A DNA stretch of 64,000 nt from Eledone cirrhosa (lineage: Eukaryota): NCBI GenBank assembly GCA_964016885.1, contig OZ024743.1, positions 266,972,001 through 267,036,000 of the forward strand, read 5' to 3'. Positions 30,155 through 62,779 of the stretch are shown piece by piece (within the stretch, counting starts at the first letter, position 1; every line of letters starts with the position of its first letter). The notes under the pieces were generated by a model. The model was not told the DNA's origin, made no database searches, and saw nothing but the letters and a program-made list of their open reading frames with translations. Position numbers and translations under genes: made by a program.

Positions 30155-30189
30155 AGTCTCAGTCATTGATGTTAGTTAACTGGAAAGTT
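30155..30189 (-). mobile_element. R4 family A 3'-terminal stub (35 bp)
   Basis: agtctcagtcattgatgttagttaactggaaagtt matches family A2 3' ends (35865, 45021). Confidence 0.8.
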
Positions 30190-30190
30190 A

Positions 30191-30991
30191 TAATCTCTTT
30201 GGAAGGACTTTCGGGCCCGGGCCTATGGACAGCTTCCAGAAATCCCTGGCCTGGCAGTGCTACCGAGGAGCTTTGCCAATTCGGGATAAATTCTACAGGC
30301 ATGGAGGTGCCGTCAGCCCGGCATGTCCGAGATGCGCGCAGGGCGACGAAACAGTCCTGCACGCACTCGTCCAGTGTCCGAGCATTGCTGACTTGTGGGT
30401 TTATGTCGAACACCTGCTGTCGCGTGTAAGACGGATCCACCTATCAGCTGAGTCCATCGTGAGGATTGCCCCGCCCTGTTCCTTTAGCCGGGAAGGGTAG
30501 GCAGTTTTTATCTGTCAGGTGGCCATGGCGAAAGAGATAGTATGATGGACACGTTTGAAAGGGCTTAGGACGAGCATTTACCACTTCGGTGATGCCCTGA
30601 TTAACTTTTCCAAATTCCATTTGAAAAGGAAAATTAGGGTAGAGGGGGAAGTGCTCTCTTCCCAGCATTTTGTTGAAAGATGGGTGAAAGAGGCAAGAAT
30701 GTACCGAGTGAATGGGCCTACTCTGAGTATGTGTCTGTAAATTAAAGGTGCAAAACTGGGAGAGGGCATTTGCCCTGGTGGTCAGGGTCACTGTGGCTTT
30801 TTAATGGGCTTTCTCCACGAATGTCCTTCGGAGGTCTCCCCCCTATTGGCGAATGTTTTCTTTGTTCTATTATTATATACTCTGTTTCTTGTTTTTTTTA
30901 CACGCAGAAATGCCCTTTTGTACGGTCCTGTATTGCCTGTACTGTCCTTAATGTCTACTTTATGTAAACCCTTGTGTTTAATAAAGAAAGC
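30191..30991 (+). mobile_element. Tx1 family, 5'-truncated (ORF2 C-terminus with CPRC...H...C finger + 3' UTR, AATAAA, ATT tail)
   Basis: High similarity to 60645-61445. Confidence 0.93.
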
Positions 30992-31037
30992 ATTATTATT
31001 ATTATAATAATAATAATAATAATAATTATTATTATTA

Positions 31038-34000
31038 CAGTTGCATTTATCTTGCTTTATGTTCATACGAGTTATCACCAATTCACAAACAGTGACCTCA
31101 AGAGACCGCCATGTTGAAGAAAGAACATACATATACACACATGCATCTTTAGGTGTTTAGATTTGTGATGTACTTATATTGACAGAATCTTCTTTAGTAT
31201 ATGGGCAGTTCTCATTAGTACTATCTTTTATATTTCTCCTATACGCGGGTTTCCAGGGATTTGCGATAAGTAATCATTAGACCCCTAGAGCGACTACAAC
31301 TGCTGGTATTGTTTTAGTTCTCAATTTCCACGTTTTTCCAATTTCTATCTCCAGGTCCTTACACTTGCTCAATTTTTCAAATGTTTTTATAGATACATTC
31401 TTGTCTATTGGAACCGACATATCAATTAGCAGGGATACCCTCATTTTAAAATCCTTCAGTATTATATCATGTCTATTTGCATCTATTTGTCGGTCTGTTT
31501 GGATGCTAAAGTTCCACAAGATTGAGATGTGATCTTTTTCAAGTATGGGTGGTGGTTGAAGCTCCCACAATTCTTTTGATGGGGCAGGTCAAAATGCTTA
31601 CACATTATCCAATGTATGCATTGTGCAACTCTGTCATGCCTGTTTCGGTATTCTGTTGGAGCTATAGGAATGCACGTTGAAATTATATTATCAATGGTCT
31701 CTGGTTGTTTTTTACATACGCGGCATAATGGGTTGCATCCATTTTCTATTATGTTGGCTTGGTAATTCTTTGTTAGCAGACACTGATCTCGTGCTGATAT
31801 AATTAGCCCTTCAGTCTCCGATTTCAGTCCAGAGGATGCCAACCACTGATGTGTTAAAGTTTTGTCAACATCAGGATTGTTAGCTCTTTCTGGGTATTTT
31901 CCATAAATAGACTTTTCTTGCCATTTCTTAGCCAGTTTCTGTAGCAGTTCTTTCTTTGCAGTTACTTTTACCTGCATTGCTTTTTCTGTGTTTTTCATTT
32001 CAGCAGTAAATGGAACTTCTGAAATTTGTTGTCCATTACTGTATCTTTGTACATCTTTTGTAATGGAGTATGATCTTTTGATGCTTTCGTGTTTCAAAAC
32101 GAGTTTGATCATCCAATCATGTAATTCCCTTAGATATGTAGATAATCCAATTGTTGCAGTTTTCAACGCAATATCTAACTGGATTAACCCACGTCCTCCT
32201 TCTTTCCTAGGGAGATATATTCTATCTGTATCTGCCTTAGGGTGATGCGTTCTGTTCATGGTTAAGAATTTTCTAATTTTTGTAGATCTTGAACAGTTGA
32301 TGATATTGTAACTGTAGGTTACTACTGGTATGGCAAGCGTGTTTATGGCAACGATCTTATTCCTTGCATTCAATTCCGTTCTTAAGATTGCTCTTACTCT
32401 GCGGTAACATTCCTTCCTTATCCTTTCCCTCCTTGTCGAGTGCTTGATTCTGTCTCCTTCACAAACACCTAGATATTGGTAAGTTTTCTCTTTGTCAAGT
32501 TCTCTTATCACATTCCTCCGATCAAGATTAATGTCTGAACTTTTCAGCAGATTTCCTTTGGCGCATTTATCTAGTCCAAACTCCATTTTAATATTATCAC
32601 TGAACATTTTTTGCATGTAGAACAATTGATTACTGGTTTTGTCATAGACTTTATATCCATGTGTTGTTTCATTGAGCATTTTACTTAATGGTATAAGTGC
32701 GATGCAGAATAAAAGCTGTGATAAAGATTCACCCTGAAAAATTCCACAATTAATATTAACTTCTCCAGCTTCCAGTGATTCTTTTTCAATATTCAAAAGG
32801 AGTCTCGTTTTCCATGTCTTCATACTGAATGACATGAACTTCCTAACAACAGGAGATATTTTTAAAATCTTTAAATATTTTTCAATCCAACTGTTTGGCA
32901 AACTATCGAATGCTTTTTTGTAATCTATCCAAGCAATTGATATATTTTCATGTCTATTATGACAAACTTCCAGTATCCTTTTCTTAACCAAAAGCTGATC
33001 CTTACAGCCATATATGAGCCTCGTTTACACCCTTTCTGCTCATTGGGAAATAGATCATCTGTTATCAGGTGGTCATATGTATATTCAGTTAGGACTGATG
33101 TTTACATGTTATACGTTGTGGTCAAGCAAGTTATCGGTCTGTAATTTTTGGGATTGTTTGTCTCAGCATTCTTCGGTAGCAGGAATGTAATGCCGTTAAC
33201 TAGGCATGGTGGTATCTTTTCTGGCTCCTTAACCATTTCATTGTAAACGAAATGACATGAGACTCTGTGAAGACATTTATCCAAAAATTTGGTATTTTGT
33301 CTTTTCCTGGGGATTTCCATTTGCTGGTTTTTCTAAGAGCCAAATGCAACTTGTCAACTGTTATATTTTCCCATGCTTGTTCCTCAAGGTGGGTTGTATC
33401 TTTCATTTGTCTGTCTATCCATATTCATGGGGCATGTATATTATGATTTTTTTCTTCGGCCCAGATCTTTTCCCAGAATTCTTGCACTTCCTCCTTGGGT
33501 GGTATTGATTTAGCAGTTATTGTTGACTTGCCAATTTTTCTGTAGAAGTTTCTTTGGTTGTTTTTGAACATATTATTGTCCTTATAGAATCTAGATCGTT
33601 TTTCAAAGCGCCTTATACGAGCAGCTTTGGCCGACACATTTTGTTTGATTATTTCTATCAGCATGTCTATGTCACTTGTTGATTTAATACTGTATTTCCT
33701 TTTCAATTTTCTAAGTTTAGTTTGTTTAACATGTTCACTTACTTTGTAGTTTGTTAACATTTCTATAGTTAGATCGCAGAAGGTTTATTTAGCGATTGAT
33801 GTTCTCTTGCTAAGTATGTTTCTTGTGGGAATTCCTTTGTTTTTTTCATTTTAACTCCACATAAGTGAGTGGTGACTTTAGTCGATGCATAATAGAGATG
33901 GTTTAGATCAGTAATGTTTAGTTTGTTTGTGATGATAATGTTTTTGAGAATTATGTTAGTCTTGTGTATTATCTTTTGGTTCTGTGTGGAGTTCTGATTC

Positions 34001-34880
34001 TTAGGGAGAGAGTCTCGTTCCCCCATGTCAGATTCTTTCATTTTTATCCATTCGATCATAATTTCATTATTCAAGTTGGCAAGTTCATTCTCATTCATTT
34101 CTTTATCATTTACGATCTCATTGTTTTCATTTTGAGTTTCATCTTGAGCATGCACTCCCTCCACTTATTTTATCCTTTCATTAATTTGTTTGGCTGTCAG
34201 TGATTCCGCCTCAACCCTGGGATTCGAAGCGTTACAGTTTACCTCGTTTTCACTGACACATGTTTCATTTTCCCTTCGCAGACTTTATGCTAATTGCTTG
34301 ATTTGATCAATTTCTATGTCAGTTAGTAACTTTTTTTAACATATTTCTTCCTATATTTGCTAGTTCGTTACTGACAGTATAGCCTCTGTTTTCGGGATGT
34401 TTCTTTTTCCAGTTGATATATGTCTGTTCTGTATTCGACCTATATGATGGGTAGTACATGGCAGTGTAGAAAACCTCAAGTACTTCTTTATTCTATTCCC
34501 TTGACCATTTTTCTCTCTTTTTCTTTGGATTTCTTGGTGGTGAGCATGGAGGGCCAACAGTAGGAGTATTTCGGTTATGGGAGGTCTTCAGCTCCGAATT
34601 GATGGCAAGGTTTGAACCATTAGCTGATTTTTCGACCCCAGCCTGGATCCTCTATGAGGGACGCGGCCCTTTTTGACCCGGGTGACGGCCGATCCGGTAT
34701 GAGATTTTATCATTTGACATTGATTTTATTTTGTTGCGTTCTATCTTTAACCCCCAAGGCATAATGATTTCGTGTTACCGCTCATAGGATGAGTGTCAAC
34801 GAAAAATAGAGGGGTCGTCCTCCCACAGAGACACGGCTATTCCCCGCCGGCCGGCACCCCGGTATTTGTTGGTCACGGGC
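31038..34880 (-). mobile_element. R4/Dong family B, full-length but degenerate (catalytic YMDD lost by deletion)
   Basis: 5' UTR matches 55212-55371; ATG at 34720; pieces 33769..34164, 33425..33760, 31483..32991, 31277..31570. Confidence 0.92.
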
Positions 34881-34959
34881 TTTTCTTTTTTTTCTTTTTT
34901 AAATTGTTATTATCATGAGTGGTTCCTTAATGCGAGCACTGCGTCTTTAAGAATGATAT

Positions 34960-35825
34960 TATTATTAATAATATGATATACTTTTTGTTGAAGTTGCCTG
35001 TTGTTGTTGGCTATGTCGGTGCTGGTGGTGCTGGGGATTTTTCTATTGTTGGTGGGGAAGGGGGGAACCAGCAGTGCCATAGTCGTTGATGTTTGACATG
35101 GACACTAAGTCTGTCTATTTATATCTTTAGCTAGCCTCACCCTTGTCTAGTGATACCACCACCTTCCCCTTTCTTAAGTTAACAGAAGGTAGTGGGGTAG
35201 CAGTGATGGAGTGGTGGCTAGTTAGTGGGATAGTGGTACCAATAATAGAGAGGTGGCGGTGGTGACTGTAGTTATGGTGTTGTCGTTACTGAGTTCTGTT
35301 GAATAGACTTTAGTTAGTGTGTGTTTGTTTGATCTGTATATATATGCGGTGTGTCGCCTATGTTTAATATATATGTTGACATATTTCCTTAATATTTGAA
35401 TTAAAGATTTTAAGAAAACTTGAGATACTATAAGAGTAATTATTATTATTATTCTGGGAATCATTATTATTGTTAAAAGAAATCACTATTATTATTCTGG
35501 GATTGGTGGTAGTGGTGGTGAAATTGCCGTTATCTGGCTGTTGTATTTAGTGTACATAGGGTGGTGGTGGGATAGGTGGTGTATCTAGGTTGTGGCTGTG
35601 GTGAAATTGCTGTTATTTGGCTGTTCTACATAGTGTAGACAGAGGGGTTTTTCTTCCATTTATAACCATTTCCTTTTTTGAATATAAAATTTATAATACA
35701 AAATTGAATATTGAGCGATATGCCAGGATATTCTGGATACGCATTTTCGGAGATCTAAGCCTGGTGCCTTATGTCCCATTTGTACTAAGAATTGTTATAT
35801 CACAATTGTTTTAAATATGTTAAAA
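34960..35825 (-). mobile_element. Orphan family-A-like 5' region (no RT body)
   Basis: 35110-35825 shares blocks with the family A leader 44190-44920 (ttccatttata.ccatt, atttgtactaaga.ttgttat, gaaattgccgttatctggctgttg). Confidence 0.6.
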
Positions 35826-35859
35826 ATTATTATTAAAAATTATTATTATTATTATTATT

Positions 35860-36016
35860 CTTTCAGTCTCAGTCATTGATGTTAGTTAACTGGAAAGTTT
35901 GTTGAAATGAATATCAAGCCGCTACCTGCAGCCTCAGATATTCAGGACGTATCGGAGGGTTCTTGTTGTTACCAGCAAGAATGTCTTTTGAAGTGTTCCA
36001 AAAAGCGGGGCTGGAC
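35860..36016 (-). mobile_element. R4 family A2 3' stub (~155 bp)
   Basis: Matches 36049-36200; TTA repeats on both sides. Confidence 0.88.
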
Positions 36017-36048
36017 TTATTATTATTATTATTATTATTATTATTGTT

Positions 36049-39000
36049 CTTCGAGTCTCAGTCAATGATGTTATTTAACTGGAAGGTTTGTTGAAATGAA
36101 TATCAAGCCACTACCTGCAGCCTCAGATATTCAGGACGTATCGGAGAGTTCTTGGTGTTCCCAGCAAGCATGCCTTTTGAAGTGTTCCAAAAAGCGGGGC
36201 GGGACCAATTTTCTTTAACCATCCTTGGAAACTCTTTGAGATAGTACCTCGTGCGCCTATGACAATCGGGACCATTTTGACCTCATTGCAGTTCCAAATC
36301 ATTTATTACCTCCCACTTTAAGTCCTGGTATCGGTTAATTTTCTCCCTCTCCTTCTCTTTCACTCTCGTGTCGAATGGGCAGGCCACATCCACAATCAGG
36401 CACGATATTTTTCCCTTGTCCAAAACCACCAGGTCAGGTATATTGTGTTCCAGTTTCTTGTCCGTCTGTATCCTAAAATCCCACAGCACCTTCACCTTAT
36501 CGTTTTCCATCACCGACTCTGGCTTATGCTCATACCACTTCTCAGAATGTGGTAAATTGTTTACTTTGCATAGGTGCTAGTGGATCACCCTGCCCATCAC
36601 ATCATGACTCCAGCCTTTATAGTGAGTCTGGGCTAGGTGTTTATACTCGGATACAATTTTAGCCACAGTCTCCTCTCTCTCTCCACATATCCTACACAGT
36701 GGGCTAGCCTCCTCCTTGTAAATATGGTGTTTCAACCACTTCGTTTTGAGAGCCTCCTCTTGCGCAGCCATTAGCATTCCTTCTGTAGCTTTTTTAAGGT
36801 CTCCTCTTTTCAACTAGTTCCATGTCTGTGGATCTATAAATTCAGTTTTCTCAAAGAAGGGATTTTTCATGAAGGTTGCTCTTTCGTCTTGTTGTTATTT
36901 CCTCCTTGGACATCCCCTGGTCTATTGTCCTCTCCTTCAGTACAATTCTGGGTATTGGCTCCCTACTACAAGTCACGTATTTGTGTAGGTTGTTTTTCTC
37001 CATCTGAACACAGTCCTCTATGCTGATAAGACCTCTTCCACCATCAGATCTCCTTCAGTAGAGTCTATCGACATCACTCCTCTTGTGGAACATGTTGTAG
37101 ATAGTCAATAGCTTCCTAGTCTTCCTATCCATTTCTTTTTGTTCAGCAATATTCCATCTCAGAATTCCCGCACTGTACCTAATAATAGACACAGCTCGGG
37201 AATTTACCGCACTTATGGCATTCCTACTGTTCAGATGTGATTTTGATACGCTCCTTACTCTCCGAATGTATTCAGATCTTATCAATTCCTTCATTTATTT
37301 GTTCTTTGTGTCATCAGCCTCCAGAACACCTAAATATTTGTATCCCCCTTCAGTATCAATTTCATTTATCATCTCACCTATAGGTATCTGGATTCCGTTA
37401 CCACTGCTCAATTTACCCCTCTTCATCACAAGGACTCCACACTTACTAATACCAAATTGCTTACATATATCATTGCTGAAAATACGGACAGTGTCAACAA
37501 GTACATCCAACTCCTTCTCACTCTTCCCGAAGAGCTTTAGATCGTCCATGAAGAGGAGGTGATTGATGGTAACCTCTCCCTTTCCCAACTTGTATCCTGC
37601 TCTCACTTTTCGCAGTATAATGGTCTGGGGTATCAGGGCAAGGACAAACAACAGAGGGCACAAACTATCTCCCTGTAAGATCCTCACGCCTCCCAAGGAT
37701 TCTCCGCCTGATGTTAACTCTGTTTTCCAGGACTTCATACTTTTTCTCAACAACTGTCTGATGATATCTACCACACTGAAGATCTCTAGGCTTTTGGTTA
37801 TCCAAGAATTAGATACCATGTCGAATGCCTTTTTGTAGTCTATCCATCCCATGGCAAGACCAGTGTGTCTCCTCCTGCAAATCCTCATTACCACCTTATA
37901 AATAAGTAACTGATCATTTGTACCACGGGACTTCTTTCGGCATCTTTTCTGTTCGTCCGGTAACAAGTTGTTTATGTGGAGGTGATGTTAGATTTTCTCA
38001 GACACAATGCTTGTTAACAGTTTCCACATTACGGACAGACATGTGATAGGTCTATAGTTGGTAACATCATTACCCTTGGTTCGGTCTTTTATTACCAGAA
38101 CTGTGGTACCTTTTGTCAACCACTCTGGTACCTCACCTGAAATTAAGCAGTCATTGAACATGGTTGTCAGTTTCGGGGAGTGATTTTATATGTTTAATCC
38201 AATATTCCTGCACACCATCTGGGCCTGGTGATTTCCAGTTGGTTAGTTTTCTGGCCTGCCCCTTAAGAGTTTCAACTGTGATACTCAAATCAGTTTGTTG
38301 GTGTGCCTGTTCACTAATCTCCTTTTGTACTGTCTCAATCCACACTGCCTGATCAGTATGTTCAACATCCTGCTCCCATATTCCTCTCCAGAATGTCTTA
38401 GTTTGTTCCGCCTCAGGTATCAAGTCGTTGCCTCTTTCTTTCCCTTCAAGCTGTCCAATCAACATCTTCTGGCTGTTGTCAAACATGCGGTTCTGTCTAT
38501 ACTGACTGACTCTGCTCTCGTATCGCCTAATCTTTGCGCTCTTTGCTACAATGCGTTGCGTCAGTTCCTCTATGATAATATTTAGCTTTTTCCTCCTAGT
38601 TTTGTACTTTATTTCCAGTCTATGTTTAGTGTCTATGTTTTGTAGAGACCCATTCAGTAGGGACTCAAGCTTTCCAATGTCATTTCTCATTTCCCTGATT
38701 TGACCATTCAGTCGTTTCTTCCACCAAGTTCGGATCTTTCTTGTTTGTTGTTTCCTCACGCTTTTATACCCAGTAATTTCCTCACCGCATTTGCTGTTGC
38801 TTTGAGGATATTGTTCCACTGGTGAAGGTTCGTCGCATCAAGGTATTGGATGACTTTGTTTACCTTAGCTGTTGTTTCTTTTAACTTGTTCCTGTCTACA
38901 AATCCTAGGTTCATAGGTTTCCCAATATCATTGTTCATTTCATCTACCACTAAGTTTAGGATATCAACCAAATCTTGTCCTAGCCCGTCAGTATTCATTT

Positions 39001-40322: not shown

Positions 40323-40335
40323 TATTATTATTATT

Positions 40336-40425
40336 AACTTTGCCTTTCATGCTTACGTGGTCGATAAAATAAAGTACCAGTAATACACTGGGTAATTGCT
40401 GGTCTTGTGCCTAACGTAGAAACAA
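40336..40425 (+). mobile_element. SINE 3' half with ATT tail inside the (TTA)n array
   Basis: actttgcctttcat...gtcgataaaataaagtaccag...aacaattattatt. Confidence 0.75.
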
Positions 40426-40464
40426 TTATTATTATTATTATAATTATTATTATTATTATTATTA

Positions 40465-44943: not shown

Positions 44944-45019
<76 letters not shown>

Positions 45020-46541: not shown

Positions 46542-46627
46542 GTTATTGTTATTCCTTGAATCTCAGTCATTGATGTTGGTTAACTGGAAAGTCCATTGGA
46601 TTGAATATCAAGCCACTACCTGCAGCC

Positions 46628-49971: not shown

Positions 49972-50039
49972 TTCACCGTTATTCGAACTGTTTATGTTCG
50001 ATATTTAAACACTCTTATCGAGGATTGGCGAATGTATGT

Positions 50040-50174: not shown

Positions 50175-50544
50175 TGTAATGTAGTATTCGAATGTCTGAC
50201 TTAGTTTTTGTTTTTTAAGTTTTACTTTTTCCCCCCTCTTCTCTGTCCGTCCGCCTGCTTCTCTCTTCATTCTTATTTTCTTTACGTTTTTGGGGTTTCT
50301 TTTTTTGTTTTTGTTTTTCTCTGTTTGTTTTTCTCGTTTTTTGCTGTTGTTGCTGTGCTGCTTTTGTTGTTTGTTTTTTCTTTTTTCTTTTGAGTCTATC
50401 TATATATTTTGATGCCTTCCTCTTTGTTAGTAGTAGGAATTCTATAATGTGGAAGTGGCAGCCAGCAGAGACTGGCGGCGTTGGCGATACTGAGACAGTG
50501 GTGGTGGTGATGTCGATACCGAGGCAGTGGTGGCGGTGATGCGA

Positions 50545-51199: not shown

Positions 51200-51374
51200 T
51201 TATAACAATATATTTTGGGTCCGAATTTTTTTGGGGCTCAAGCCGGGTGCTTTACGTAGCATTTGTACTAAGAGTTGTTATTTCACAAATGATTTAAATA
51301 TGTTAAAAATTCAAAACTTACGGGAGCGATTTCATGACCTCCGTCACCTCGTGCGTCTTCTTCCCTTATTATTA

Positions 51375-51428: not shown

Positions 51429-51429
<1 letters not shown>

Positions 51430-54400
51430 AGTTGCATTTATCGTGCTTTATGTTCATACGAGTTATCACCAAGTCACAACCAGTGACCTCAAGAGACAAC
51501 AAAGTCCGCCATGTTCAAGACAGAACATACATACTCACACATGCATCTTTAGTGTTTAGACTTGTGATGTACTTATATTGACAGATTCTTCCTTAGTATA
51601 TGGGCAGTTCCTATTAGTACTATCTTTTGTATTTCTCCTATACGCGGGTTTCCTGGGATTTGCGATAAGTAATCATTAGACCCCTTAGGTATCATTCCCA
51701 GAGCGCCTACAACCACTGGTATTGTTTTAGTTCTGAATTTCCACATTTTTCCAATTTCTATCTCCAGGTCCTTATACTTGCTCAATTTTTCAAATGTTTT
51801 TATAGATACATTCTTGTCTATTGGAACGGACATATCAATTAGCAGGCATACCCTCCTTTTAAAGTCCTTCAATATTATATCAGGTCTATTTGCATCTATT
51901 TTTCGGTCTGTTTGGATGCTAAAGTTCTACAAGATTGAGATGTGATCTTTTTCAAGTATGGGAGGTGGTTGATGCTCCCACCAATTCTTTTGATGGGGCA
52001 GGTCAAAATGCTTACACATTATCCAATGTATGTATTGTGCAGCTCTGTCATGCCTGTTTAGGTATTCGGTTGGAGCTATAGGACTGCACATTGAAATTAT
52101 ATGGTCAATGGTCTCTGGTTGTTTTTCGCATACACGGCATAATGGGCTGCATTCATTTTTTATTATGTTGGCTTGGTAATTTTTTGTTGGCAGACACTGA
52201 TCTTGTGCTGAAATAATCAGTCCTTCAGTCTCCGATTTCAGTCCAGAGGATGCCAACCACTGATGGGTTAAAGTTTTGTCAACATCAGGATTGTTAGCTC
52301 GCTCTGGGTATTTTCCATACAGAGGCTTTTCTTGCCATTTCTTAGCCAGTTTCTGTAGCAGTTCTTTCTTTGTAGTTACTTTTACCTGCTTTGCTTTTTC
52401 TGTGTTTTCCATTTCAGCAGTAAATGGGACTTCTGAAATTTGTAGTCCTTTACTGTATCTTTGTGCATCTTTTGTAATGGAATATGATCTTTTGATGCTT
52501 TCGTGTTTCAAAACGAGTTTGATCATCCAATCATGTGATTCCCTTAGATATGTAGATAATCCAATTGTTGCAGTTTTTAACGCAATGTCCAACTGGATTA
52601 ACCCACGTCCTCCTTCTTTCCTAGGGAGATATATTCTCTCTATATCTGCCTTAGGGTGATGCATTCTGTGTATGGTTAAGAATTTTCAAATTTTTGTATC
52701 GAGCCTACGGATCTCTGTGCTTGACCAGTTGATGACATTGTAACTGTAGGTTACTACTGGTATGGCAAGTGTGTTTATGGCATCGATCCTATTCCTTGCA
52801 TTCAATTCCGTTCTTAAGATCGCTCTGACTCTGCGGTAACATTCCTTCCTTATCCTTTCCCTCATTGTCGAGTGCTTGATTCCGTCTCCTTCACAAACAC
52901 CTAGATATTTGCAAGTTTTTTCTTGATCAAGTTCTCTTATCACGTTCCCCCGATCAAGATTAATGTCTGAACTCTTCAGTAGCTTTCCTCTGGTGAACGT
53001 TGCTTTGGCGCATTTACCTAGTCCAAACTCCATTTTAATGTCATCACTGAACTGCTCCACAGCCCTTGCAATTGTTCATAATTTTTTGAAAATAGTTTCA
53101 GGTCATCCATGTAGAATAAGTGATTAATGGTTTTGCCATAGACTTTATATCCATGTTTTGTTTCATTGAGCATTTTACTTAATGGTATAAGTGCGATGCA
53201 GAATAAAAGCGGTGATAAAGAGTCACCCTGAAAAATTCCACAATTAATATTAACTTCTCCAGCTTCCAGTGATTTTGTTTCACTATTCAAAAGGAGTGTC
53301 GTTTTCCATGTCTTCATACTGAATGACAAAAACCTCCTGAAAACGGGGGATATTTTGAAAATCTCTAAACATTTTTCAATCCAACTGTGGCAAACTATCG
53401 AATGCTTTTTTTATAATCTATCCAAGTAATCGATAGATTTTTGTGTCTATTATGACAATCTTCCAGTATCATTTTGTTAACCGAAAGCTGATCCTTACAG
53501 CCATATCAGCCTCGTTTACACCTTTTCTGCTCAATGGGAAATAGGTCATTTGTTATCAGGTGGTCATATGTGTATTTAGTTAGGAGTGATGTTAAAATTT
53601 TATACATTGTGGTCAAGCAAGTTATCGGTCTGTAATTTTTGGGATTGTTTGTCTCATCATTCTTCGGAAGCAGGAATGTAATGCCGTTAAATAGGCATGG
53701 TGGTATCTTTACTGGCTCCTTAACTATTTCATTGAAAAGTTGGGCTAACAGCTCATGAGACTCTGTGAAGGCATTTATCCAAAAGTTTTGCATTTTGTCT
53801 TTTCCTGGGGATTTCCATTTGCTGGTTTTTCTTAGAGCCAAGCGCACATGTTCAACTGTTATATTTTCCCATATTCGTTCCTCAAGGTGAGCTGTATCTT
53901 TCATTTGTCTGTCTATCCATGGGGCATGTATGTTATGAACTTTTTCTTCGGCCCAGATCTTTTCCCAGAATTCTTGCACTTCCTCCTTGGGTGGTATTGA
54001 TTTAGCAGTTATTGTTGACTTACCAATTTTTCTGTAGAAGTTTCTTTGGTTGTTTTTGAACATATTATTGTCCTTATAGAATCTAGATCGTTTTTCAAAG
54101 CGCCTTATACGAGCAGCTTTGGCCGACACTTTTTGCTTGATTATTTCTATCAGCATGTCTATGTCACTTGTTGATTTTATACTGTACTTTCTTTTCAATT
54201 TTCTAAGTTTAGTTTGTTTAACATGTTCACCTTCTTTATAGTTTGTTAAAATTTCTATGTCAGATGGGAGAAGGTTTATTTGGCGATTGATGTTCTCTTG
54301 CCAAGTAGATTTCTTGTGGGAATTCCTTTGTTTTTACATCTTCACTCCACATAAGTGAGTGGTGACTTAGGGCGATGCATAATAGAGATAATTTAAATCA

Positions 54401-55371
54401 GTAATGTTTAGTTTGTTTGTGATGATAATGTTTTTGAGAATTATGTTAGTCTTGTGTATTATCTTTTGGTTCTGTTTGGAGTTCTGGATCCTAGGGAGGG
54501 TGTCTCGTTGCCCCATGTCAGATTCTTTCATTTTCATCCATTCGATCATAATTTCATCCTTCAAGTTGGCAAGTTCATTCTCATTCATTTCTTTATCATT
54601 TACGATCTCATTATTTTCATTTGGAGTTTCATCCTGAGCATGCACTCCCTCCACTTTTTCGATCCTTTCTTTAATTTGTTCTGTTGCCAGTGATTCCGCC
54701 CCAAACCCGGGATTCGAAGTGTTACAATTTACCTCGTTTTCACTGACACATGTTTCATTTTCCCTTCGCTGACTTTGTGCTAATAGCTTGATCTGATCAA
54801 TTTCTATATCAGTTAGTAACTTTTTTCTTACAATATTTCTTCGTATATTTGCTAGTTTGTTACTGTCAATGTAGCCTTGTTTTCGGGATGTTTCTTTTTC
54901 CAGTTGATATATGTCTGTTCTGTATTCGATGTATTTGATGGGTAGTATATGGCAGTGTAGAAAGCCTCAAGGACTTCTTTATTATCTTCCCTTGACCATT
55001 TTTCCCTCTTTTTCTTTGGATTTCTTGGTGGTGAGCATGGAGGGCTAACAGTAGGAGTATTCCGGTTATGGGAGGTCCCCAGCTCCGAAGTGATGGGAAG
55101 CTTTGAACCATTAGCTGATTTTTCGACCCCAGCCTGGTTCCTCTCTGAGGGATGCGGCCCTTTTTTACCCGGGTGACGGCCGATCCGGTATGAGATTTTA
55201 TCATTAGACATTTACTTTATTTTGTCGCGTTTTATCCTCCTCCGCCAAGGGGTAATCATTTCGTGTTACCACTTCTAGAACGAGTGTCAACCAAGACTAG
55301 AGGGGCCGTTATCCCTTAGAGACACGGCTATTTCCCGCCGGCCGCCATCCCGGTATTTCTTGGTCACGGGG
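51429..55371 (-). mobile_element. R4/Dong family B, full-length with frameshifts
   Basis: ATG 55211 (MSNDKISY.., KWSREDNKEVLEAFY); pieces down to 51573 include YMDD, CCHC and PD-D nuclease; (TTA)n both sides. Confidence 0.95.
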
Positions 55372-55420
<49 letters not shown>

Positions 55421-55638
55421 GAATGCTATGGTTGACGGAGGCTCGGCTCTGTAAGGTACTGTAAATTTTGAACGCTTTAACAATTGTAAATTGTTTAAAA
55501 CTTAGACCAACTTGTAGACAAAAACACCCTCCTCCTCGTGAGAGGGGTCTTTCTGCCCGTTATTTAGCCCTTCGGGGTTAAATAACTGCTTATTGGGGGT
55601 TTGTAGCCAATATTTATTTTAAACAAAAAAAAAACAAC

Positions 55639-57740
55639 ATGGCTACGAAAAAGAATTTGCATAGGTCACTCCCACTCATTCCGTCTTCTTCTTCCTCAAT
55701 CGTCACTACAGCACAGAGAAGATTGTCTCTCTCCCTCCCTTCTTTAAATGTGCCTCTCTCCCTCCCTTCTCTTTCGCAAGTGACGAAAGTAAAGAAAAGT
55801 CTCGTGCAAAGCATGCAAGGTTTCTCCACGACGACGACGACAGCGACGAAGCAGGTGTGCGGGAAATACGAAAACCCAATTCATTCGTCTGACGTCAGGA
55901 ATAATAGCAGTAGCAGCCGTAATAACAACAGCAACAGTGACAATGAAAACAACAGTAGCAGCCGCAACAGCATCACCAGCAGCATAAACAACAACAGCAT
56001 TAGCAGCAGCAACACCAACAACAACCACAGCAACAGCGGCGAAGGCAGTAGTCGTAGTACCTGCTGCAACAACAAAAGTAACAGCAGCTCTGACGACAAC
56101 AACAACAACAGCAGCAAAGAAAAACCAATCTCATTTGCAGGTATTGCAAAAAACTTGGAAACAATCCTGATAACAAATGAGGAATTAGAGGAAGCGAAGA
56201 AGATGGTGACAAAGAATGGACACCGAGCAATCTGCAAGGCAGCGGAAAATTTTTTCGAAACCCAACAGCACTGTACGGTCACGTACCGTACAGTAAGTAC
56301 AAAATCCCGTAGGGTGGAAAGAGCCACAGAGGCCCAAATACAAAAAGCATTGGGGTCTGTGTGGCAGCGGAAAACGCACATTACCCGAGGCAAAAAATAT
56401 GCCACCGTAGACGTACTTTTTGCCACAACCCAGGAGGCAAAGGCCCAATCCGTAGTGACCCTAAGGAGCGAGGAAATGGTGTTGGTGCCCTCCTACTGCG
56501 GGCAAAAAATCGTGAGGGTCAAACTGACCCACGTCCCCCCCGGAATGGCCCCTTCTTGGCTGGCCGCCTAGTCCTCGTCGGAATCGAGGACAAAACAACT
56601 GTACTGCAAGTACAGAAAAAAGTAAGAGAAGATTGTGTCGGCACCTCCATTGAGATGCTAATCCAAACCAACCAGGAGTGCATCGAAGCTATCCCGGATG
56701 TGATAGACTTCGATAACGGCACTCACCTGCCCATAAGTGTTGAGGGCAAACGCCCGAAATGCTTTCGCTGTGGATCGAAGACTCACCTCAGGGCCTTCTG
56801 CAACGAGAGACCCTGAGAAAGGAGAAAACCCCCCTCCTTCCGAAACCGGCTCCACGGCTACCAGCAAAAGGACAAGCGGCAACCAGGAACGATAGGTCCG
56901 TGGCACCCATACCCACGCCACGGAAATCAAAAACAGCAGCAGCAGTGGAAATATTAACAACAAAAAGAGCAATACCAAATGCAGCTGCAACAGAGACTCC
57001 AGTGCAAACATCACCAACAACAACAAGTGAAAGAGTGGAGCTGGTACCCCTCCCCGACCTCACAGAATCAGACATCGAGTGTGAGGTGGGAGAGGGATGG
57101 CAAAAGGTCGTAAGAAGACACAAACGCAGAAGCAGCGCATCGTCGCCTTTGAAAAGGGAGGAAAGAAATGAGAAAAGGGTAAAGTCTACTGCAAAGAGAC
57201 CCACAGCAGCAACACCACCAACACCATCACCACCCACACTAGCACCACCATCACCACCGGCGACAATCCCACCGCCAACAACACCTTCAACACCACCACC
57301 ACAAGCACCAACATCGCAAACACAACAACAAAACACACACATCCAGCAACAACGACATGAAAATAGCAGAACCACACCTCCACCCCCAGAAAAACAAATG
57401 CACGGCAATAAATACACACAACAAGAAACTAATGACTTACATAATTGAACACACAGACATTTCACAACAGGACTACATAATACCAGCACCAATCAAAACG
57501 CCAACTAACATAAGACTGCTAAAAATAGCACAGAAACAATACACAAACATTAAAACGAAATTCCCCAACGCAGTTGGTGATTTCAGGGACCTAGGAGGAA
57601 CCATCAATCGAAGAGTATATTCAGACATACTCTTAGAAGAGCCGACGACCAGCCGAAGGGACGATTCAACGGTCCCTTCACCAGACGATCAACTGAAAAG
57701 GGATGTAAAAACCATCCCTCCTCTACCAAAAGTACGGTAA
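55639..57740 (+). pseudogene. Tx1 ORF1 (CCHC knuckle CFRCGSKTHLRAFC), frameshifted
   Basis: Pieces 55639..56571, 56361..56816, 56759..57448, 57357..57740 colinear with copy 1. Confidence 0.85.
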
Positions 57741-57775
57741 GTGGTCTTTCCCATCTTTTCCACTCTATTTTAAAC

Positions 57776-60700
57776 ATGACCTCACTCAGAATAGGCAGCA
57801 TAAATGCGCGTGGCTTGGGGTCGTCATGGAAGCAGCGTCACCTGCTCAACGACCTCAGGTCACTAAACATAGATGTAGTGGCCATCAGCGAGACCAGAAT
57901 CTCCGAAGCACGGGCCTTCGCACCGATCTTCGGCGGCTACGATGTGTACGCATCTCCCAGCCGTCCTGGATCGGGTGGAGGAGTTGCTGTGCTTTTTCGG
58001 AGAGGTTTGGATCTCGCCATACGGGCCATCTTCCTGGACCCAGAGGGTAAGTTGCTGGTGCTGGACGTGACCAGCGGAGACGGCCAAGCTTTCAGGCTAG
58101 TGGCCGTCTATGCCCCGACAGGAGCAGGGCGGCCTGATTTCTTCCGGCGTCTGGAGACCTTTCTTGGAACGTCCCGCTCTTTAGTGTTAGTGGGCGACTG
58201 GAACGGGATCTTAGATGCACGCTGGGACTGTGTGGGATTAGCGGATATGGGTGGAGGGTGCAAGAGCCTCACTAACCTGCTCAGGCGTTTTGAACTGTCT
58301 GACAGGTACCGATTGGATTTCCCGTATGTGCCAATGTGGACTTGGACAAACCGCATAGGGTCATCCAGATCATATCTAGATAGAGTATTTTGTAGGGAAA
58401 TAGATAGGTCTAGCATAGGCTGTCCACAATTCAAGATAGTCAGCTACACGGACCACAAATTCGTGATCTGTGTGCTTGACTTAGATAGGTTTCATAGACG
58501 AGGACCCGGCTACTGGAAGCTAAACGCGTCCTTACCAGCGCGCAAGGCCTACAGAGACCGGATTAGCGAACTAGTTAAGCGGGCGTTGACGGGGGCCATC
58601 GTCAACAACAAGTGGTGGTTTGCTCTGAAAAGAGCGATTAGATTAGAATCGATTAGGTTTAGTAAGGCTTTAGCAATAGAGAAAAATAGAGCAGAGGGAG
58701 AACTAGTTAGAAAATTAGACGAGGCGCTTAGCAAAGGCATTGCGACCGACGTGCTTGCGGCGAAATTGGCCCTTGACCAATTCTTCAATGCAAAGCACGA
58801 AGGCTGCGTTGTCAGAGCAAGGGTGCGTGCTCTCAGACACGAGGGGACGAAAGCCGTTCAATGGGCCCGAGTGGCGGAGGCGCGTCGTGGCAACAAAGCC
58901 ACGATCCGGTATTTGGTGGACCACGACGGGCGCATGCTACTCGATCCCGGGCAAATGTGTGAAGCTTTTCAGCGACACTTCGCTCAGCTGTTCGGGGGCA
59001 GCGGGGGGCCGGGTAGAGGCATGGACTTTAGTGTCTACCTCGACGGACTGCCGCGGCTCTCGGCCACTGAGGCGAAGTGTTGCGAAAAGCCGATAACAGC
59101 CGCTGAAGTAAGGGAAGCAATGACTGGCTGCACAAGGGGTAAATCGCCTGGTTTGGATGGTCTGCCCTATGAACTTTACGTACAGATGCCAGACTGGTTC
59201 GGAGGCCTCTTGGCGGACGTCTACTGCAACTGGCAACAGAACGGGAGAATTCCCAGTTCTGTGAGCCGAGGAGCGGTGGCACTGCTGAGAAAGGATCCGA
59301 ACAAGGGGGATAACATAGACAATTTCCGGCCCTTAACTCTGCTAAACACAGAGTTCAAGATTTTGGCCAAGGTGCTAGCAAAGAGGTTGGCGCTTGTCGT
59401 TGGTGGTCTGGTGGGAGAGGCGCAGACATGCGCCATTCCCGACAGATCCATACACGACAACCTCCACCTCATGCGATACATCATAGAGAGGGTAGCTAAG
59501 GAACCTGGCACGGGTGGGTCCTTGATCAATTTAGATCAGTCGAAAGCTTTCGATAGGGTCGACCATCGTTACCTAGCGGCAGTCCTGAGGGCGGCTGGCT
59601 TTGGGCCCGTCTTCAGAGGCTGGATCGCTGCCATGCACAGCGACATCTGCTCTGTGGTGAGAGGAAACGGTCACCTGTCGGAACCGTTCAACATCATGCG
59701 CTCTGTCCGCCAAGGATGTCCCCTCTCGTCCCTCTTGTACGTATTGACTCTCGAGCCATTACTGCACAAACTGGACACGTTCAGGGGAGTCCCGCGCGAA
59801 CTAGGATGCGGAAGATCCGTGTCAGCATATGCGGACGATGTCACCGTAGTGGTGTCGAACGCCAAACACATCGAGGCGATCGGCACTACACTAAGAGAAT
59901 ACGAAGCGGTGACAGGAGCAATGATCAACCAGGAAAAGTCAGTGGGCCTGCAGCTCGGCACCTGGAAAGGCAGGTCCATGCCGTCCAACAGTGTCGTCGG
60001 GCGCTGGACGGACGGACCGGTTAAATTGCTAGGGGTCTGGTTCGGTCCGGACCTCCAGACGGACAAAAACTGGGACGAGGTGACGAGCAGGGTGCCTTCT
60101 CTCACCCAGAAATGGGCGGAGAGGAAGCTATCCCTGAAAGATCGAGCGGAGGTGGCTAACGCGTACATCGCGTCTGTCATCTGCTACCGCCTAACCGTCG
60201 TACCTTCTCCTAAGCCCCGCCTGACTGCGCTGGAGCGTTTGCTCTTCCGCTTTTTGTGGAAGGGACGTGCTCCGATGGTCAGGCGATCCATCTGTTGTCA
60301 ACACCCGCTACGTGGAGGGCTGGGCATGCCGTGGCTGATGATGCGCATGCACGCGCTCAGGCTACGACATCTCCACCTCTTCCTCGACGGTGATCAGGTG
60401 TGGTCGCCGTTTGCTAGACGCGTTTTTCCCCAGCTCGTTTCCTTGACGGAGCTGCAGTCCTGGGTCAAGCGAAGACCGAGAGGGAGCGCCTGGAGACTGG
60501 AATGTCTTCAGGCGCTCACAGCCCTCGACCAATCGGGCAATGTGATCGGTGGAAACTCTACCTCGGCGTTCTATAGAGGATTAGTGGAGGGGAAGAGCGA
60601 CGACGTACTTGGGGAAACTCTAGGCGTCGACGAAAATCAACTAGCCAATCTCTTCGGAAGAACTTTCGGGCCAGGGCCTATGGACAACTTCCAGAAATCT

Positions 60701-61195
60701 CTGGCCTGGCAGTGCTACCGAGGAGCCTTGCCAGTTCGGGATAAACTCTATAGGCATGGAGGTGCCGACAGCCGGGCATGTCCGAGATGCGTGCAGGGCG
60801 ACGAAACCGTCCTGCACGCACTCGTCCAGTGTCCGAAAATTGCTGACTTGTGGGTTTATGTCGAACACCTGCTGTCGCGTTTAGGACGGATCCGGCTATC
60901 ATCTGAGTCCATCGTGAGGATTGCCCCGCCCTCCTCCTTTAGCCGGGAAGGGCAGGCAGTTTTTATCTGCCTGGTGGCCATGGTGAAAGAGATAGTATGG
61001 TGGACACGTTTGAAAGGGCTGAAGACGAGCACTTACCTCTTCGGTGATGCTCTGATTGACTTTTTCAATTTTCATTTGAAAAGGAAAATCAGAGTAGAGA
61101 GGGAAGTGCTCTCTTCCCAGCATTTTGTTGAAAGATGGGTGAGAGAAGCAAGAATGGCCCGAGTGAATGGGCCTACTCTGAGTATATATCTGTAA
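57776..61195 (+). CDS. Tx1 ORF2: APE endonuclease + reverse transcriptase + C-terminal Cys/His finger, 1139 aa, intact
   Basis: SINARGL, ISET, VYAP, GDWN, YLDR, TDH (APE); PGLDG, FRPLTLLN, DQSKAFD, RQGCPLS, YADD (RT); CPRC...H...C. Confidence 0.97.
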   Translation: MTSLRIGSINARGLGSSWKQRHLLNDLRSLNIDVVAISETRISEARAFAPIFGGYDVYASPSRPGSGGGVAVLFRRGLDLAIRAIFLDPEGKLLVLDVTSGDGQAFRLVAVYAPTGAGRPDFFRRLETFLGTSRSLVLVGDWNGILDARWDCVGLADMGGGCKSLTNLLRRFELSDRYRLDFPYVPMWTWTNRIGSSRSYLDRVFCREIDRSSIGCPQFKIVSYTDHKFVICVLDLDRFHRRGPGYWKLNASLPARKAYRDRISELVKRALTGAIVNNKWWFALKRAIRLESIRFSKALAIEKNRAEGELVRKLDEALSKGIATDVLAAKLALDQFFNAKHEGCVVRARVRALRHEGTKAVQWARVAEARRGNKATIRYLVDHDGRMLLDPGQMCEAFQRHFAQLFGGSGGPGRGMDFSVYLDGLPRLSATEAKCCEKPITAAEVREAMTGCTRGKSPGLDGLPYELYVQMPDWFGGLLADVYCNWQQNGRIPSSVSRGAVALLRKDPNKGDNIDNFRPLTLLNTEFKILAKVLAKRLALVVGGLVGEAQTCAIPDRSIHDNLHLMRYIIERVAKEPGTGGSLINLDQSKAFDRVDHRYLAAVLRAAGFGPVFRGWIAAMHSDICSVVRGNGHLSEPFNIMRSVRQGCPLSSLLYVLTLEPLLHKLDTFRGVPRELGCGRSVSAYADDVTVVVSNAKHIEAIGTTLREYEAVTGAMINQEKSVGLQLGTWKGRSMPSNSVVGRWTDGPVKLLGVWFGPDLQTDKNWDEVTSRVPSLTQKWAERKLSLKDRAEVANAYIASVICYRLTVVPSPKPRLTALERLLFRFLWKGRAPMVRRSICCQHPLRGGLGMPWLMMRMHALRLRHLHLFLDGDQVWSPFARRVFPQLVSLTELQSWVKRRPRGSAWRLECLQALTALDQSGNVIGGNSTSAFYRGLVEGKSDDVLGETLGVDENQLANLFGRTFGPGPMDNFQKSLAWQCYRGALPVRDKLYRHGGADSRACPRCVQGDETVLHALVQCPKIADLWVYVEHLLSRLGRIRLSSESIVRIAPPSSFSREGQAVFICLVAMVKEIVWWTRLKGLKTSTYLFGDALIDFFNFHLKRKIRVEREVLSSQHFVERWVREARMARVNGPTLSIYL

Positions 61196-61443
61196 ATTAA
61201 AGGTGGAAAACTGGGAGAGGGCACTTGCCTTGGTGGTCAGGATCATTGTGGCTTTTTACTGGGCTTTCTCCACAAATGTCCCTCCGAAGTCTGCCCCCTA
61301 TTGGGGAATTTTTCATTGTTATTTTTTGTTACATCCTCTGTTTTTGTTTTTTACACGCAGAAATGCCCATTTGTACCGTCCTGCTTTGTCCTGCACTGTC
61401 CTTAATGTCTACTTTATGTAAACCCTTGTGGTTAATAAAGAAA

Positions 61444-61484
<41 letters not shown>

Positions 61485-61493
61485 GTTGTTATT

Positions 61494-62573
61494 CCTTGAA
61501 TCTCAGTCATTGATGTTGGTTAACTGGAAAGTCCGTTGGATTGAATATCAAGCCACTACCTGCAGCCTCAGATATTCAGGACGTATCGGAGGTTTCTTGC
61601 TGTTCCAAGCAAGCATGCCTTTTGAAGCGTTCCAAAAAGCGTGAAGGGGCCGATTTTCTTTAACCATCCCTGGAAACTTTTGGAGATAGTCCCCAGTGCG
61701 CCTATGACAATCGGGATCACTTTGACTTCATGGCAGTTCCAAATCCTTTTCACCTCCCACTTTAGGTCCTGGTATCGGTTAATTTTCTCCCTCTCCTTCT
61801 CTTGCACTCTCGTGTCGAACGGGCAGGCCACATCCACAATCAGGCACGATCTTTTTTCTTTGTCCACAACCACCAGGTCAGGTTTATTGTGTTCCAGTTT
61901 TTTGTCCGTCTGTATCCTAAAATCCCACAGCACCTTCACCTGATTGTTCTCCATCACCGCCTCTGGCCTATGCTCATACCATTTCTCAGAATGTGGTAAA
62001 TTGTTTACTTTGCACAGGTGCCAGTGGATCACCCTGCCCATCACATCGTGTCTCCAACCCTTATAGTGGGTCTGGGCTAGGTGTTTACACTCGGACACAA
62101 TGTGAGCCACAGTCTCCTCTCTCTCTCCACAGATCCTGCACAGTGGGCTAACCTCCTCCTTGTAGATATGGTGCTTCAACCACTTCGTTTTGAGGGCCTG
62201 CTCCTGCGCAGCCATTAGCATTCCTTCTGTAGCCTTTTTGAGGTCTCCTCTTCTCAACCAGTTCCATGTCTGTGGATCTCTAAATTCAGTTTTCTCAAAG
62301 AAGGTACTATGAAGGGATTTTCCCTTAAGGCTGCTCTTCCTCTTTGATGTTATTTCCTCCTTGGACATCCCCTGGCCTACTGTCCCCCCCTTCAGTACAG
62401 TTCTGAGCATTGGCTCCTTACTATAGGTCACGTATTTGTCTAGATTGTTTTTCTCCATCTGAACACAGTCCTCTATGCTGATAAGACCTCTTCCACCCTC
62501 AGATCTCCTTAGGTAGAGTCTATCGACATCACTCCTCTTGTGGAACATGTTGTAGATAGTCAATAGCTTCCTA
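61494..62573 (-). mobile_element. R4/Dong family A1, 5'-truncated (open 331-aa C-terminal frame)
   Basis: 61568..62563 encodes CCHC + RLE; TTA repeats both sides. Confidence 0.94.
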
Positions 62574-62576
62574 ATT

Positions 62577-62607
<31 letters not shown>

Positions 62608-62779
62608 TTGTTTTTATTATTATTATTATTTCTATTATGTTCCACCATTTTTATCTGAGACTATTTTATCTCAAACCATTTTATCTGAGACATTAACATT
62701 AAATACATGCTAAAAATACACTAGTGAATATTCTCAGGAAATAGTAACTTATAAACAAAAATGGCCTTGTTACGAGTTA

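Follow-up and report, generated by a model that had tools for sequence, protein, structure and literature searches.

The window that we analysed, i.e. the whole stretch of 64,000 nt from Eledone cirrhosa (assembly GCA_964016885.1, contig OZ024743.1, positions 266,972,001-267,036,000, forward strand), holds two arrays of retrotransposon pieces and a number of dispersed SINE-like copies. Elements were mapped within the 64-kb window by self-BLAST, family BLAST and a read-out of the junctions. The right array (30155-62630; 32,476 bp) comprises 13 pieces, namely eight of Dong family A, two of Dong family B, two of Tx1 type and one SINE-like piece; by the BLAST-based boundaries 31,902 bp are attributable to elements, and the 11 linkers, in which (TTA)n joins the pieces, sum to 491 bp or 1.5% of the array. 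The left array (1-10330) shows the pattern mirrored, with (TAA)n on the plus strand. The features are as follows.

1..4123, minus: Tx1-type LINE of the left subfamily, 5' end at 4123, ORF2 cut by the window edge, 95-bp (TTA)n 5' flank
4219..6540, plus: 5'-truncated Dong family A piece, bordered left and right by (TAA)n (BLAST, junctions)
6576..7220, plus: Dong family B, 5'-truncated (BLAST, junctions)
7245..10260, plus: Dong family B, 5'-truncated, tail reaching 10330 (BLAST, junctions)
14012..14083, plus: dispersed SINE-like piece, Tx1-like 3' end, short ATT-like tail, AT-rich non-TTA 5' flank
22292..22779, minus: three SINE-like copies, head-to-tail, joined via short ATT-type tails
30155..30190, minus: family A 3' stub of 36 bp (BLAST, junctions)
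30192..30991, plus: Tx1-type LINE, 5'-truncated, 800 bp, 90% identical to the full copy
30992..31037, unstranded: linker of an ATT run, an inverted (TAA)7 block and a TTA run
31038..34882, minus: nearly complete Dong family B copy with disrupted frames, T/A-rich and not TAA at its 5' flank
34883..34967, unstranded: 85-bp stretch without element assignment, closing with (TTA)3
34968..35826, minus: family A 5'-only piece, no ORF, no 3' end (homology to A1 over 35189-35828)
35858..36016, minus: family A 3' stub of 159 bp (BLAST, junctions)
36046..40324, minus: older full-length copy of family A (A0) with disrupted frames
40337..40424, plus: SINE-like piece, 5'-truncated, (TTA)4 5' flank, ATT tail, Tx1 polarity
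40465..44944, minus: family A full-length copy A1, internal deletion of ~150 bp at 42510
45020..46509, minus: family A, 5'-truncated (BLAST, junctions)
46554..51365, minus: family A full-length copy A2 (domain and motif reading)
51429..55373, minus: full-length copy of family B (B2) with disrupted frames and an RLE motif
55374..55420, unstranded: pure (TTA)n, 47 bp, between the B2 and Tx1 5' ends (head-to-head)
55421..61445, plus: Tx1-type LINE, full length (Pfam, motif reading, junctions)
61495..62574, minus: 5'-truncated family A piece in tail-to-tail arrangement with Tx1, imperfect (TTA)n running to 62630

A preliminary description of this DNA had reported a mixed 32-kb array on the right, the same rule mirrored on the left and no element inserted inside the coding region of another, and all three statements are borne out by the map: short deletions account for the breaks at 42510, 47346, 32605 and 53052, and the ORFs of no element are interrupted by another. 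The separation of the pieces mostly by (TTA)n linkers, as was also stated, is qualified at the 5' joint of the truncated Tx1 copy, at the B copy ending at 34882, at the stub ending at 30190 and in the linker 30992-31037 with its inverted (TAA)7. The SINE-like piece at 40337..40424 was absent from that description. The 5'-only family A piece at 34968-35826 implies that deletion or rearrangement also hit the array, and an old nesting of B and Tx1 inside one A copy may have existed in this region. A telomeric array was rejected, as host-like DNA flanks both sides and no telomere-type repeat was seen, with no TTAGG-type array among the 150 listed of the 165 tandem-repeat rows of the window.

Elements of the R4 clade have a single ORF with RT, a C-terminal CCHC motif and a PD-(D/E)xK endonuclease, and no APE; Dong is placed in this clade and in the RLE class. 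The Dong families at this locus show the same feature set (single ORF, RT, CCHC, PD-(D/E)xK, no APE) and, by domain layout, appear to belong to the clade. In the frames of both families Pfam detects RVT_1 and no Exo_endo_phos, a reading of the A2 and B2 sequences yields CxxC-x8-H-x4-C, RHD and RPD...D...K, and in a PDB sequence search with the Dong-type protein R2 proteins (1e-24) rank ahead of L1 (1e-12). The search for R4/Dong-type homologs returned 1,592 matches; none of the 120 listed bears an informative name. Copy A2 retains an 896-aa open frame with RT, a 48-bp deletion at 47346 placing CCHC and PD-(D/E)xK in another frame, and its 5' region bears a 322-bp duplication. At the 5' junctions, 11 of the 13 Dong pieces abut (TAA)n of at least three units, six different 5' truncation points included; the exceptions are the B copy at 34882, which is T/A-rich there, and the 36-bp stub at 30190, which joins Tx1 directly. 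The Dong target is (TAA)n on the sense strand. Three young family A copies (98-99% alike) have an identical imperfect repeat 3' of the element end, which indicates that the tails are element-borne and supports the regeneration of the target by tails.

Tx1-clade elements, which belong to the L1 group, have two ORFs, with CCHC in ORF1 and APE, RT and a zinc finger in ORF2, and by layout the Tx1-type elements described here likewise appear to belong with them; a homolog search for them gave 37 entries. In the full-length copy the ORF1 frames are broken, with a CCHC knuckle, and ORF2 (57776-61195) is open and carries APE (encoded by 57776-58480), RT and zf-RVT, matched in Pfam as Exo_endo_phos, RVT_1 and zf-RVT; among solved structures L1 ORF2p is the best match (4e-49), with R2 at 5e-21. 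The left and right copies are 81% identical in nucleotides over the ORF2 region and 69% over part of ORF1, i.e. they represent two subfamilies, which share CxxC-x4-H-x4-C in ORF1 and an endonuclease loop segment, WTWTNRIGSSRSY, that differs from that of non-ATT relatives. Both full-length copies have a (TTA)n 5' flank (47 and 95 bp), and at the 5' junction of the truncated copy (30192) only 2-4 bases resemble the repeat. Two of the Tx1 5' junctions contain 1-5 additional bases, so that the register of second-strand synthesis is not fixed. Both 3' ends consist of AATAAA plus 6 nt followed by the ATT repeat, without poly(A). Pfam, motifs and solved-structure matches thus agree on the assignment of RLE-type and APE-type domains that had been proposed, and the junctions uphold the proposals that Dong inserts at TAA, that (TTA)n precedes the Tx1 5' end (at the full-length copies) and that tails regenerate the target.

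Beyond the window, part of the Tx1 copy was recovered in 10 of the 16 listed sequencing runs (six studies), and runs X5 and X1 are rich in the family and in relatives of it (the contigs of the four runs examined comprise 61,621, 79,427, 10,898 and 40 records); the mapping of run contigs left out the repeat ends 55400-55427 and 61433-61466, and the 24 loose contig ends listed (10,845 more exist) all fall away from the element ends. The genome, viral and metagenome collections yielded no close copies, the 80 loci from 90 matches being distant relatives.

The third component is a dispersed ATT-tailed family, which from its look we take to be a SINE. Of the 22 nt that close the Tx1 element, 16 are matched by its 3' ends (column majority of six ends; a short match, seen post hoc), as compared with 4-7 of 22 for Dong ends. 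When the five anchor columns are removed the agreement is 11/17 (p=1.6e-3); individual copies score 12-16 of 22, which shuffles can attain (at least 15 in 3 of ~5,700 shuffled positions). In the 64-kb window ARAGORN predicts 0 genes and Rfam gives no tRNA match. An ATT-type 5' flank is present in three of the seven SINE-like pieces of the window, four having no clear one, and two pieces follow the ATT-type tail of another SINE. Given a dispersed family with a Tx1 3' end and an ATT tail and so few ATT-type 5' flanks, ATT is probably both tail and target, and polarity may stem from the pairing of tail and primer and not from the endonuclease alone.

Orientation is where the two LINE classes diverge. 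In the right array the minus strand carries all ten Dong pieces (two-sided chance 0.002), and both Tx1-type pieces and the SINE-like piece lie on the plus strand; in the left array Tx1 is on the minus strand and the plus strand holds the three Dong pieces, so that over both arrays 13/13 Dong pieces are opposite in orientation to 3/3 Tx1 copies. The opposite polarity stated in the preliminary description is upheld; its strictness comes, on the Tx1 side, from three copies of three (chance 0.125).

We favour, as the more probable account, a pile-up of Dong, Tx1 and SINE-like pieces on one TTA/TAA microsatellite, with polarity likely arising from the pairing of each repeat-ended RNA with its strand. 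The strand-nicking steps are inferred from the standard model of target-primed reverse transcription, onto which the observed layout, polarity, junctions and element-borne tails are laid. The Dong RLE would first nick the (TTA)n strand, where the (UAA)n end of the Dong RNA would pair, and the Tx1 APE would make its first cut in the (TAA)n strand, at a TpA step, where the (AUU)n-ended RNA would pair. The repeat left on both sides of each insertion would offer new targets to both clades, so that the locus could grow over a long time, as copies that are 90-99% alike suggest. The same machinery probably moves the ATT-tailed SINE, seeding short ATT tracts elsewhere. The preference of Tx1 for (TTA)n would then be real but leaky, with nicking at TpA and pairing of the tail acting together and no strict lock. 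Speaking for this account are the Dong polarity and junctions, the (TTA)n flanks of both full-length Tx1 copies in an array with so little linker, the repeat tail common to three young A copies, the signs of separate insertion, the linkers after AATAAA in sister Tx1 arrays, the 3' likeness of Tx1 and SINE, the polarity of the array SINE and the TRAS/SART precedent; against it stand the number of Tx1 copies (three), one of which has no real (TTA)n, the choice of the window for its TTA arrays, the four of seven SINE-like pieces without a clear ATT-type flank, the relatives without ATT, the shortness and post hoc nature of the SINE-Tx1 match and the unfixed second-strand register. In an extended form, which we put forward tentatively, a (TTA)n-targeting Tx1 and its abundant partner SINE would lay ATT tracts genome-wide, and Dong, with the other class of endonuclease, would colonise the opposite strand and add TAA tails, each making the landing site of the other until mixed arrays of tens of kb result.

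Specificity could instead be strict and set by the endonuclease, the Tx1 family being to (TTA)n what Kibi and Koshi are to their own repeats, with both repeat and strand picked by its APE alone. We regard this as rather unlikely, in spite of the long (TTA)n 5' flanks of two divergent subfamilies, of their common loop segment unlike that of non-ATT relatives, of the altered targets obtained by endonuclease swaps in SART/TRAS (PMC7265360) and of the frequency with which Tx1 families target microsatellites (PMC4494074), because the truncated Tx1 copy has no tract and the SINE-like family, whose 3' end is that of Tx1, occurs dispersed, with four of seven pieces lacking an ATT-type 5' flank. The latter argument is softened by SINEs moved by Tx1-Mar, which likewise show a weaker preference (PMC4494074). 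A Tx1 family has been considered target-specific if one sequence type makes up >20% of its genome-wide flanks (PMC4494074); here (TTA)n flanks two of three copies, in a window that was chosen for its TTA arrays. At the other extreme ATT would be only a tail, a case that had been named as refuting a (TTA)n target and that the dispersed SINE-like family with its Tx1 3' end and ATT tail keeps partly alive: Tx1 and SINE would insert unselectively at AT-rich sites, Dong would later enter their (ATT)n tails and be forced into the opposite orientation, and the (TTA)n 5' of Tx1 would be due to chance or RNA-borne. Such a scheme accounts for both tail-to-tail joints (30992, 61446), for the SINE at 14012 with its non-TTA flank and short ATT-like tail and for the near lack of 5' repeat at the truncated Tx1, and short tandem repeats end other LINEs too (PMC3747384). 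Yet it leaves unexplained why (TTA)n tracts of 47 and 95 bp precede the full-length copies of two subfamilies, and why (TTA)4 precedes the truncated SINE at 40337, where linkers are so scarce, and we judge it improbable.

If the array had grown by tandem duplication of a few insertions, or were mis-assembled, the common orientation would be uninformative. Some copies are indeed 98-99% alike, the 5'-only piece and the 322-bp internal duplication attest to local rearrangement, and no sequencing-run contig spans the entire mapped stretch. However, all 5' truncation points differ, and the absence of any recurring neighbour pair together with identities of 90-99% (a divergence of up to 10%) argues for separate insertions; as junctions do not recur, tandem duplication was rejected, and we give this family of explanations hardly any credence.

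What would be new here is a (TTA)n-specific Tx1, proposed from three copies; that Dong targets TAA is already known. If the pile-up account is right, (TTA)n joins the known Tx1 targets, the common SINE-like family gains a candidate partner LINE, and the growth of local LINE hotspots in the Eledone cirrhosa genome without hitting genes is explained. It would also provide a natural pair of RLE and APE enzymes reading opposite strands of one trinucleotide repeat, by which the shares of the endonuclease and of RNA tail-pairing in microsatellite targeting and polarity become testable. No precedent for an RLE-plus-APE pair on TTA was found in the literature searched; each ingredient has its precedents (Dong on TAA, microsatellite-specific Tx1, TRAS/SART), which limits the surprise.

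Dong of silkworm, mosquito and snail targets TAA, in a review that groups Dong with APE elements (PMC3812793), and in Octopus vulgaris Dong-R4 is abundant and recently active, with 1,129 recent insertions (PMC13282606). The families described here resemble Dong, DongAg and DongBg in their single ORF with RT, CCHC and PD-(D/E)xK and in their insertion at (TAA)n with a fixed polarity; the difference is that here a pile-up of two families extends over 32 kb, in which an APE element and a SINE are joined through the same linkers. Kibi, Koshi and the crocodilian Tx1 elements are, like our Tx1, two-ORF APE elements with a microsatellite flank and a fixed polarity, whereas their targets are (TC)n, (TTC)n, (TTCC)n and (TTTC)n (PMC4494074); the flanks found here, being (TTA)n, are not those of the Kibi/Koshi lineage. 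An ATT-targeting Tx1 may already be listed, the comparison being with the targets named in the text of PMC4494074.

The closest Tx1 relatives with DNA context form head-to-tail arrays in a single genome (G001, loci L081-L118 and L123; 40-43% aa identity over the whole ORF2). As here, these elements end at AATAAA without poly(A) and pile up at one site; in contrast, each array has all its copies in a single orientation and short linkers of its own that are not repetitive, and the endonuclease loop is two residues longer (three main-lineage copies). ATT/TAA occurs at 0/38 of their junctions (locus L112, which has no anchor, left out), so conservation of the target does not extend over the lineage, and a lineage-wide ATT target was rejected. 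In the sister Tx1 arrays the array-specific linkers follow AATAAA, and at one array end (L138) the linker continues into flank DNA, as expected if this lineage ends in target-like sequence.

Crocodilian SINEU, whose mobility has been ascribed to the Tx1 machinery, shares the Tx1 target more loosely (13-90% by family) and forms tandems; its link to Tx1-Mar was drawn from shared targets and 5' heads (PMC4494074), whereas the hint here is a shared 22-nt 3' end and the ATT tail. The precedent for opposite use of one repeat is TRAS/SART of Bombyx mori, where two LINE families occupy one repeat in opposite orientations via nicks on opposite strands and TRAS1 nicks at a T-A step (PMC7265360). The likeness lies in two families on one repeat with opposite orientation; the differences are that TRAS and SART are both R1-clade APE elements on telomeric TTAGG, whereas here an RLE and an APE element meet on a trinucleotide microsatellite that is internal, and their tails are repeats and not poly(A).

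The window consists of animal DNA, probably octopus-like to judge by its repeat content, that is rich in (AT)n and contains two GC-richer blocks, 1-10330 and 30155-62630. By self-BLAST, BLAST with reference copies and a read-out of junctions, the latter was resolved into an array of 13 pieces that cover 31,902 of its 32,476 bp and derive from two Dong-type LINE families (A and B), a Tx1-type LINE and a short ATT-tailed, SINE-like repeat:

30155-62630, minus strand: eight family A pieces (three near full length, two longer 5'-truncated, two short 3' stubs, one 5' region only)
30155-62630, minus strand: two family B pieces
30192-30991, plus strand: Tx1-type piece, truncated
55421-61445, plus strand: Tx1-type piece, full-length
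40337-40424, plus strand: SINE-like piece, 88 bp
1-4123, minus strand: Tx1-type copy of the left block
1-10330, plus strand: three Dong pieces of the left block

The opposed orientations reported in the preliminary description were confirmed for the right array, where the ten Dong pieces without exception occupy the minus strand (two-sided chance 0.002) and the two Tx1 pieces the plus strand, and so was the mirrored arrangement of the left block. The right-array linkers (n = 11) measure 12-75 bp each and sum to 491 bp, i.e. 1.5% of the array. Breaks within copies are short deletions and not nested elements (self-BLAST, family BLAST), and the earlier statement that no element had entered another's coding region is upheld. 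A common imperfect repeat follows three young family A copies (3' ends at 6540, 46554 and 61495), which indicates that the element carries at least part of each linker and supports the proposal that tails regenerate the target and the array thereby feeds itself. Layout, polarity and element-borne tails are established. The 5'-only family A piece, found at 34883-35826 together with 85 bp of unassigned sequence that terminate in (TTA)3, shows later rearrangement of the right array and may form a single disrupted copy with the 36-bp family A stub at 30155. Inverted TAA blocks within two linkers, namely (TAA)7 in 30992-31037 and a block in the TTA linker 40426-40464, are possibly hairpin or template-switch products.

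Families A and B encode an RT followed by a CCHC knuckle, an RHD and a PD-(D/E)xK motif, an order that we take to be the R4/Dong layout; no APE was found in the frames examined for domains and motifs, and R2 proteins were the best solved matches. The placement of Dong in TAA repeats was borne out at 11 of 13 5' junctions in both arrays, which abut (TAA)≥3 and include six different truncation points; the flank is absent from a family B junction (34882) and from the family A stub (30190). Insertion of Dong on TAA is described in the consulted part of PMC3812793. The 5' region of the full-length family A copy at 46554-51365 (minus) carries a 322-bp tandem duplication (50545-51203).

In the Tx1-type element, ORF1, which carries a CCHC knuckle, is broken and ORF2 is open over 1,139 aa (counting from the initial Met); ORF2 encodes APE, RT and zf-RVT, and L1 ORF2p is the best solved match. 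Part of the element is present in 10 of the 16 sequencing runs listed; contigs of four out of four runs differ from the window by single-base indels in ORF1 (56569, 56807, 57379), consistent with the broken ORF1 and open ORF2 of this copy. No close copies emerged from scans of public sequence collections. Both available 3' ends read AATAAA plus 6 nt and then an ATT repeat, without poly(A), and both junctions begin at ATT, so that under the TPRT model the first nick would fall on the (TAA)n strand, at a TpA step.

More distant relatives (40-43% identity over the whole ORF2) form head-to-tail arrays on animal-like contigs of G001, a genome bin listed as bacterial. These contigs (C3-C19; loci L081-L118, L123) hold dozens of copies with a period of ~6.4-6.8 kb and ORF2 open in most; they represent contaminating host DNA, and the array system is itself striking. 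The anchor motif was present in 38 of the 39 loci inspected, and in all 38 the sequence following AATAAA lacked ATT/TAA and poly(A). Each array has its own short linkers, and in one case the linker at an array end extends into flanking DNA. From these junctions, the Tx1 lineage tends toward target-like ends and pile-up, with (TTA)n not its general target. In the same bin, a truncated Dong-like piece (L139) adjoins a TTA run with the polarity seen in the window.

The SINE-like piece, so named from the look of its family, has the Tx1 orientation, with (TTA)4 upstream and an ATT tail downstream, and matches a copy at 14012-14083 and at least five further pieces in the spacer between the blocks; no tRNA head was detected in the window (ARAGORN, Rfam). 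Three copies stand head-to-tail at 22292-22779 (minus) with short ATT-type tails at the joints. ATT-type sequence adjoins the 5' end of three of the seven pieces, and the other four lack a clear flank of this type. Aligned on the Tx1 end, six 3' ends of the family fall into register; by column majority they agree with it at 16 of the last 22 nt, whereas Dong ends agree at only 4-7 of 22; without five anchor columns the match, which was spotted post hoc, is 11/17 (p = 1.6e-3). The top two of 866 candidate sites in the spacer are ends of this family, at scores that shuffles occasionally reach. Judged by these sequences, the family is a putative Tx1 partner; were it moved by the Tx1 machinery, ATT would be both an RNA-borne tail and a favoured target. 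Elsewhere between the blocks lie a degenerate full-length U2 snRNA match without an adjoining LINE (12094-12282, plus; Rfam 48.2 bits, gathering 46), a ~500-bp inverted duplication of 96% identity with a short third copy, flanked by (AT)n runs (15196-16422), another inverted-repeat element (~25800-26260) and, read by eye, near-perfect fold-back palindromes beside (AT)n runs (~16972-17088, ~26325-26716).

The interpretation offered earlier is partly supported. We favour, with somewhat better than even confidence, a reading in which opposite-strand nicking and RNA-tail pairing fix polarity, insertions add targets, and the Tx1 preference is real, if leaky. The nicked strand would be (TTA)n for Dong and (TAA)n for Tx1, the repeat end of each RNA would pair with the primer and so fix polarity, and every insertion would add repeat and hence targets for both; the nick positions, the pairing and a genome-wide Tx1 preference are what we infer. 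That the array is a duplication or artefact is scarcely credible: truncation points are all distinct and neighbour pairs never repeated, with identities over the last 640 nt of 90-99% (A) and 94-99% (B), and of 91% between the two right Tx1 copies (junction read-out).

Strict, endonuclease-set Tx1 specificity is rather unlikely. The proposed (TTA)n-specific family gains from the (TTA)n at the 5' ends of both full-length copies (47 and 95 bp), but at the 5' junction of the truncated copy 2-4 bases resemble the repeat. These full-length copies represent two subfamilies (81% identity over the ORF2 region, BLAST), alignable from a few bases beyond the repeat and sharing an endonuclease loop segment. 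Tx1 orientation concerns three copies only (chance 0.125), in a window picked for such arrays. ATT as a mere tail, later exploited by Dong, seems improbable. Beyond the favoured reading of opposite-strand nicking, cross-feeding among Tx1, its SINE and Dong is a tentative possibility.

Abundant Dong-R4 and L1-Tx1 elements are described for octopus in PMC13282606, PMC8967140 and PMC9115989, whose consulted portions make no mention of insertion targets or mixed arrays. Neither a (TTA)n-targeting Tx1 nor an RLE-APE pair on one microsatellite appeared in a full-text literature search, whose scope left aside most subscription papers and Repbase. In the part consulted of PMC4494074, Tx1 targets are (TC)n, (TTC)n, (TTCC)n and (TTTC)n; the paper also sets a 20% criterion for target-specific families (over 20% of flanks across the genome of one sequence type) and treats SINEU, SINEs attributed to Tx1 mobilisation. 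A precedent is provided by TRAS and SART, which, according to the portion seen of PMC7265360, insert in opposite directions within one repeat: there as here two kinds of LINE share a single repeat in opposed orientation, here Dong and Tx1 on TTA/TAA.
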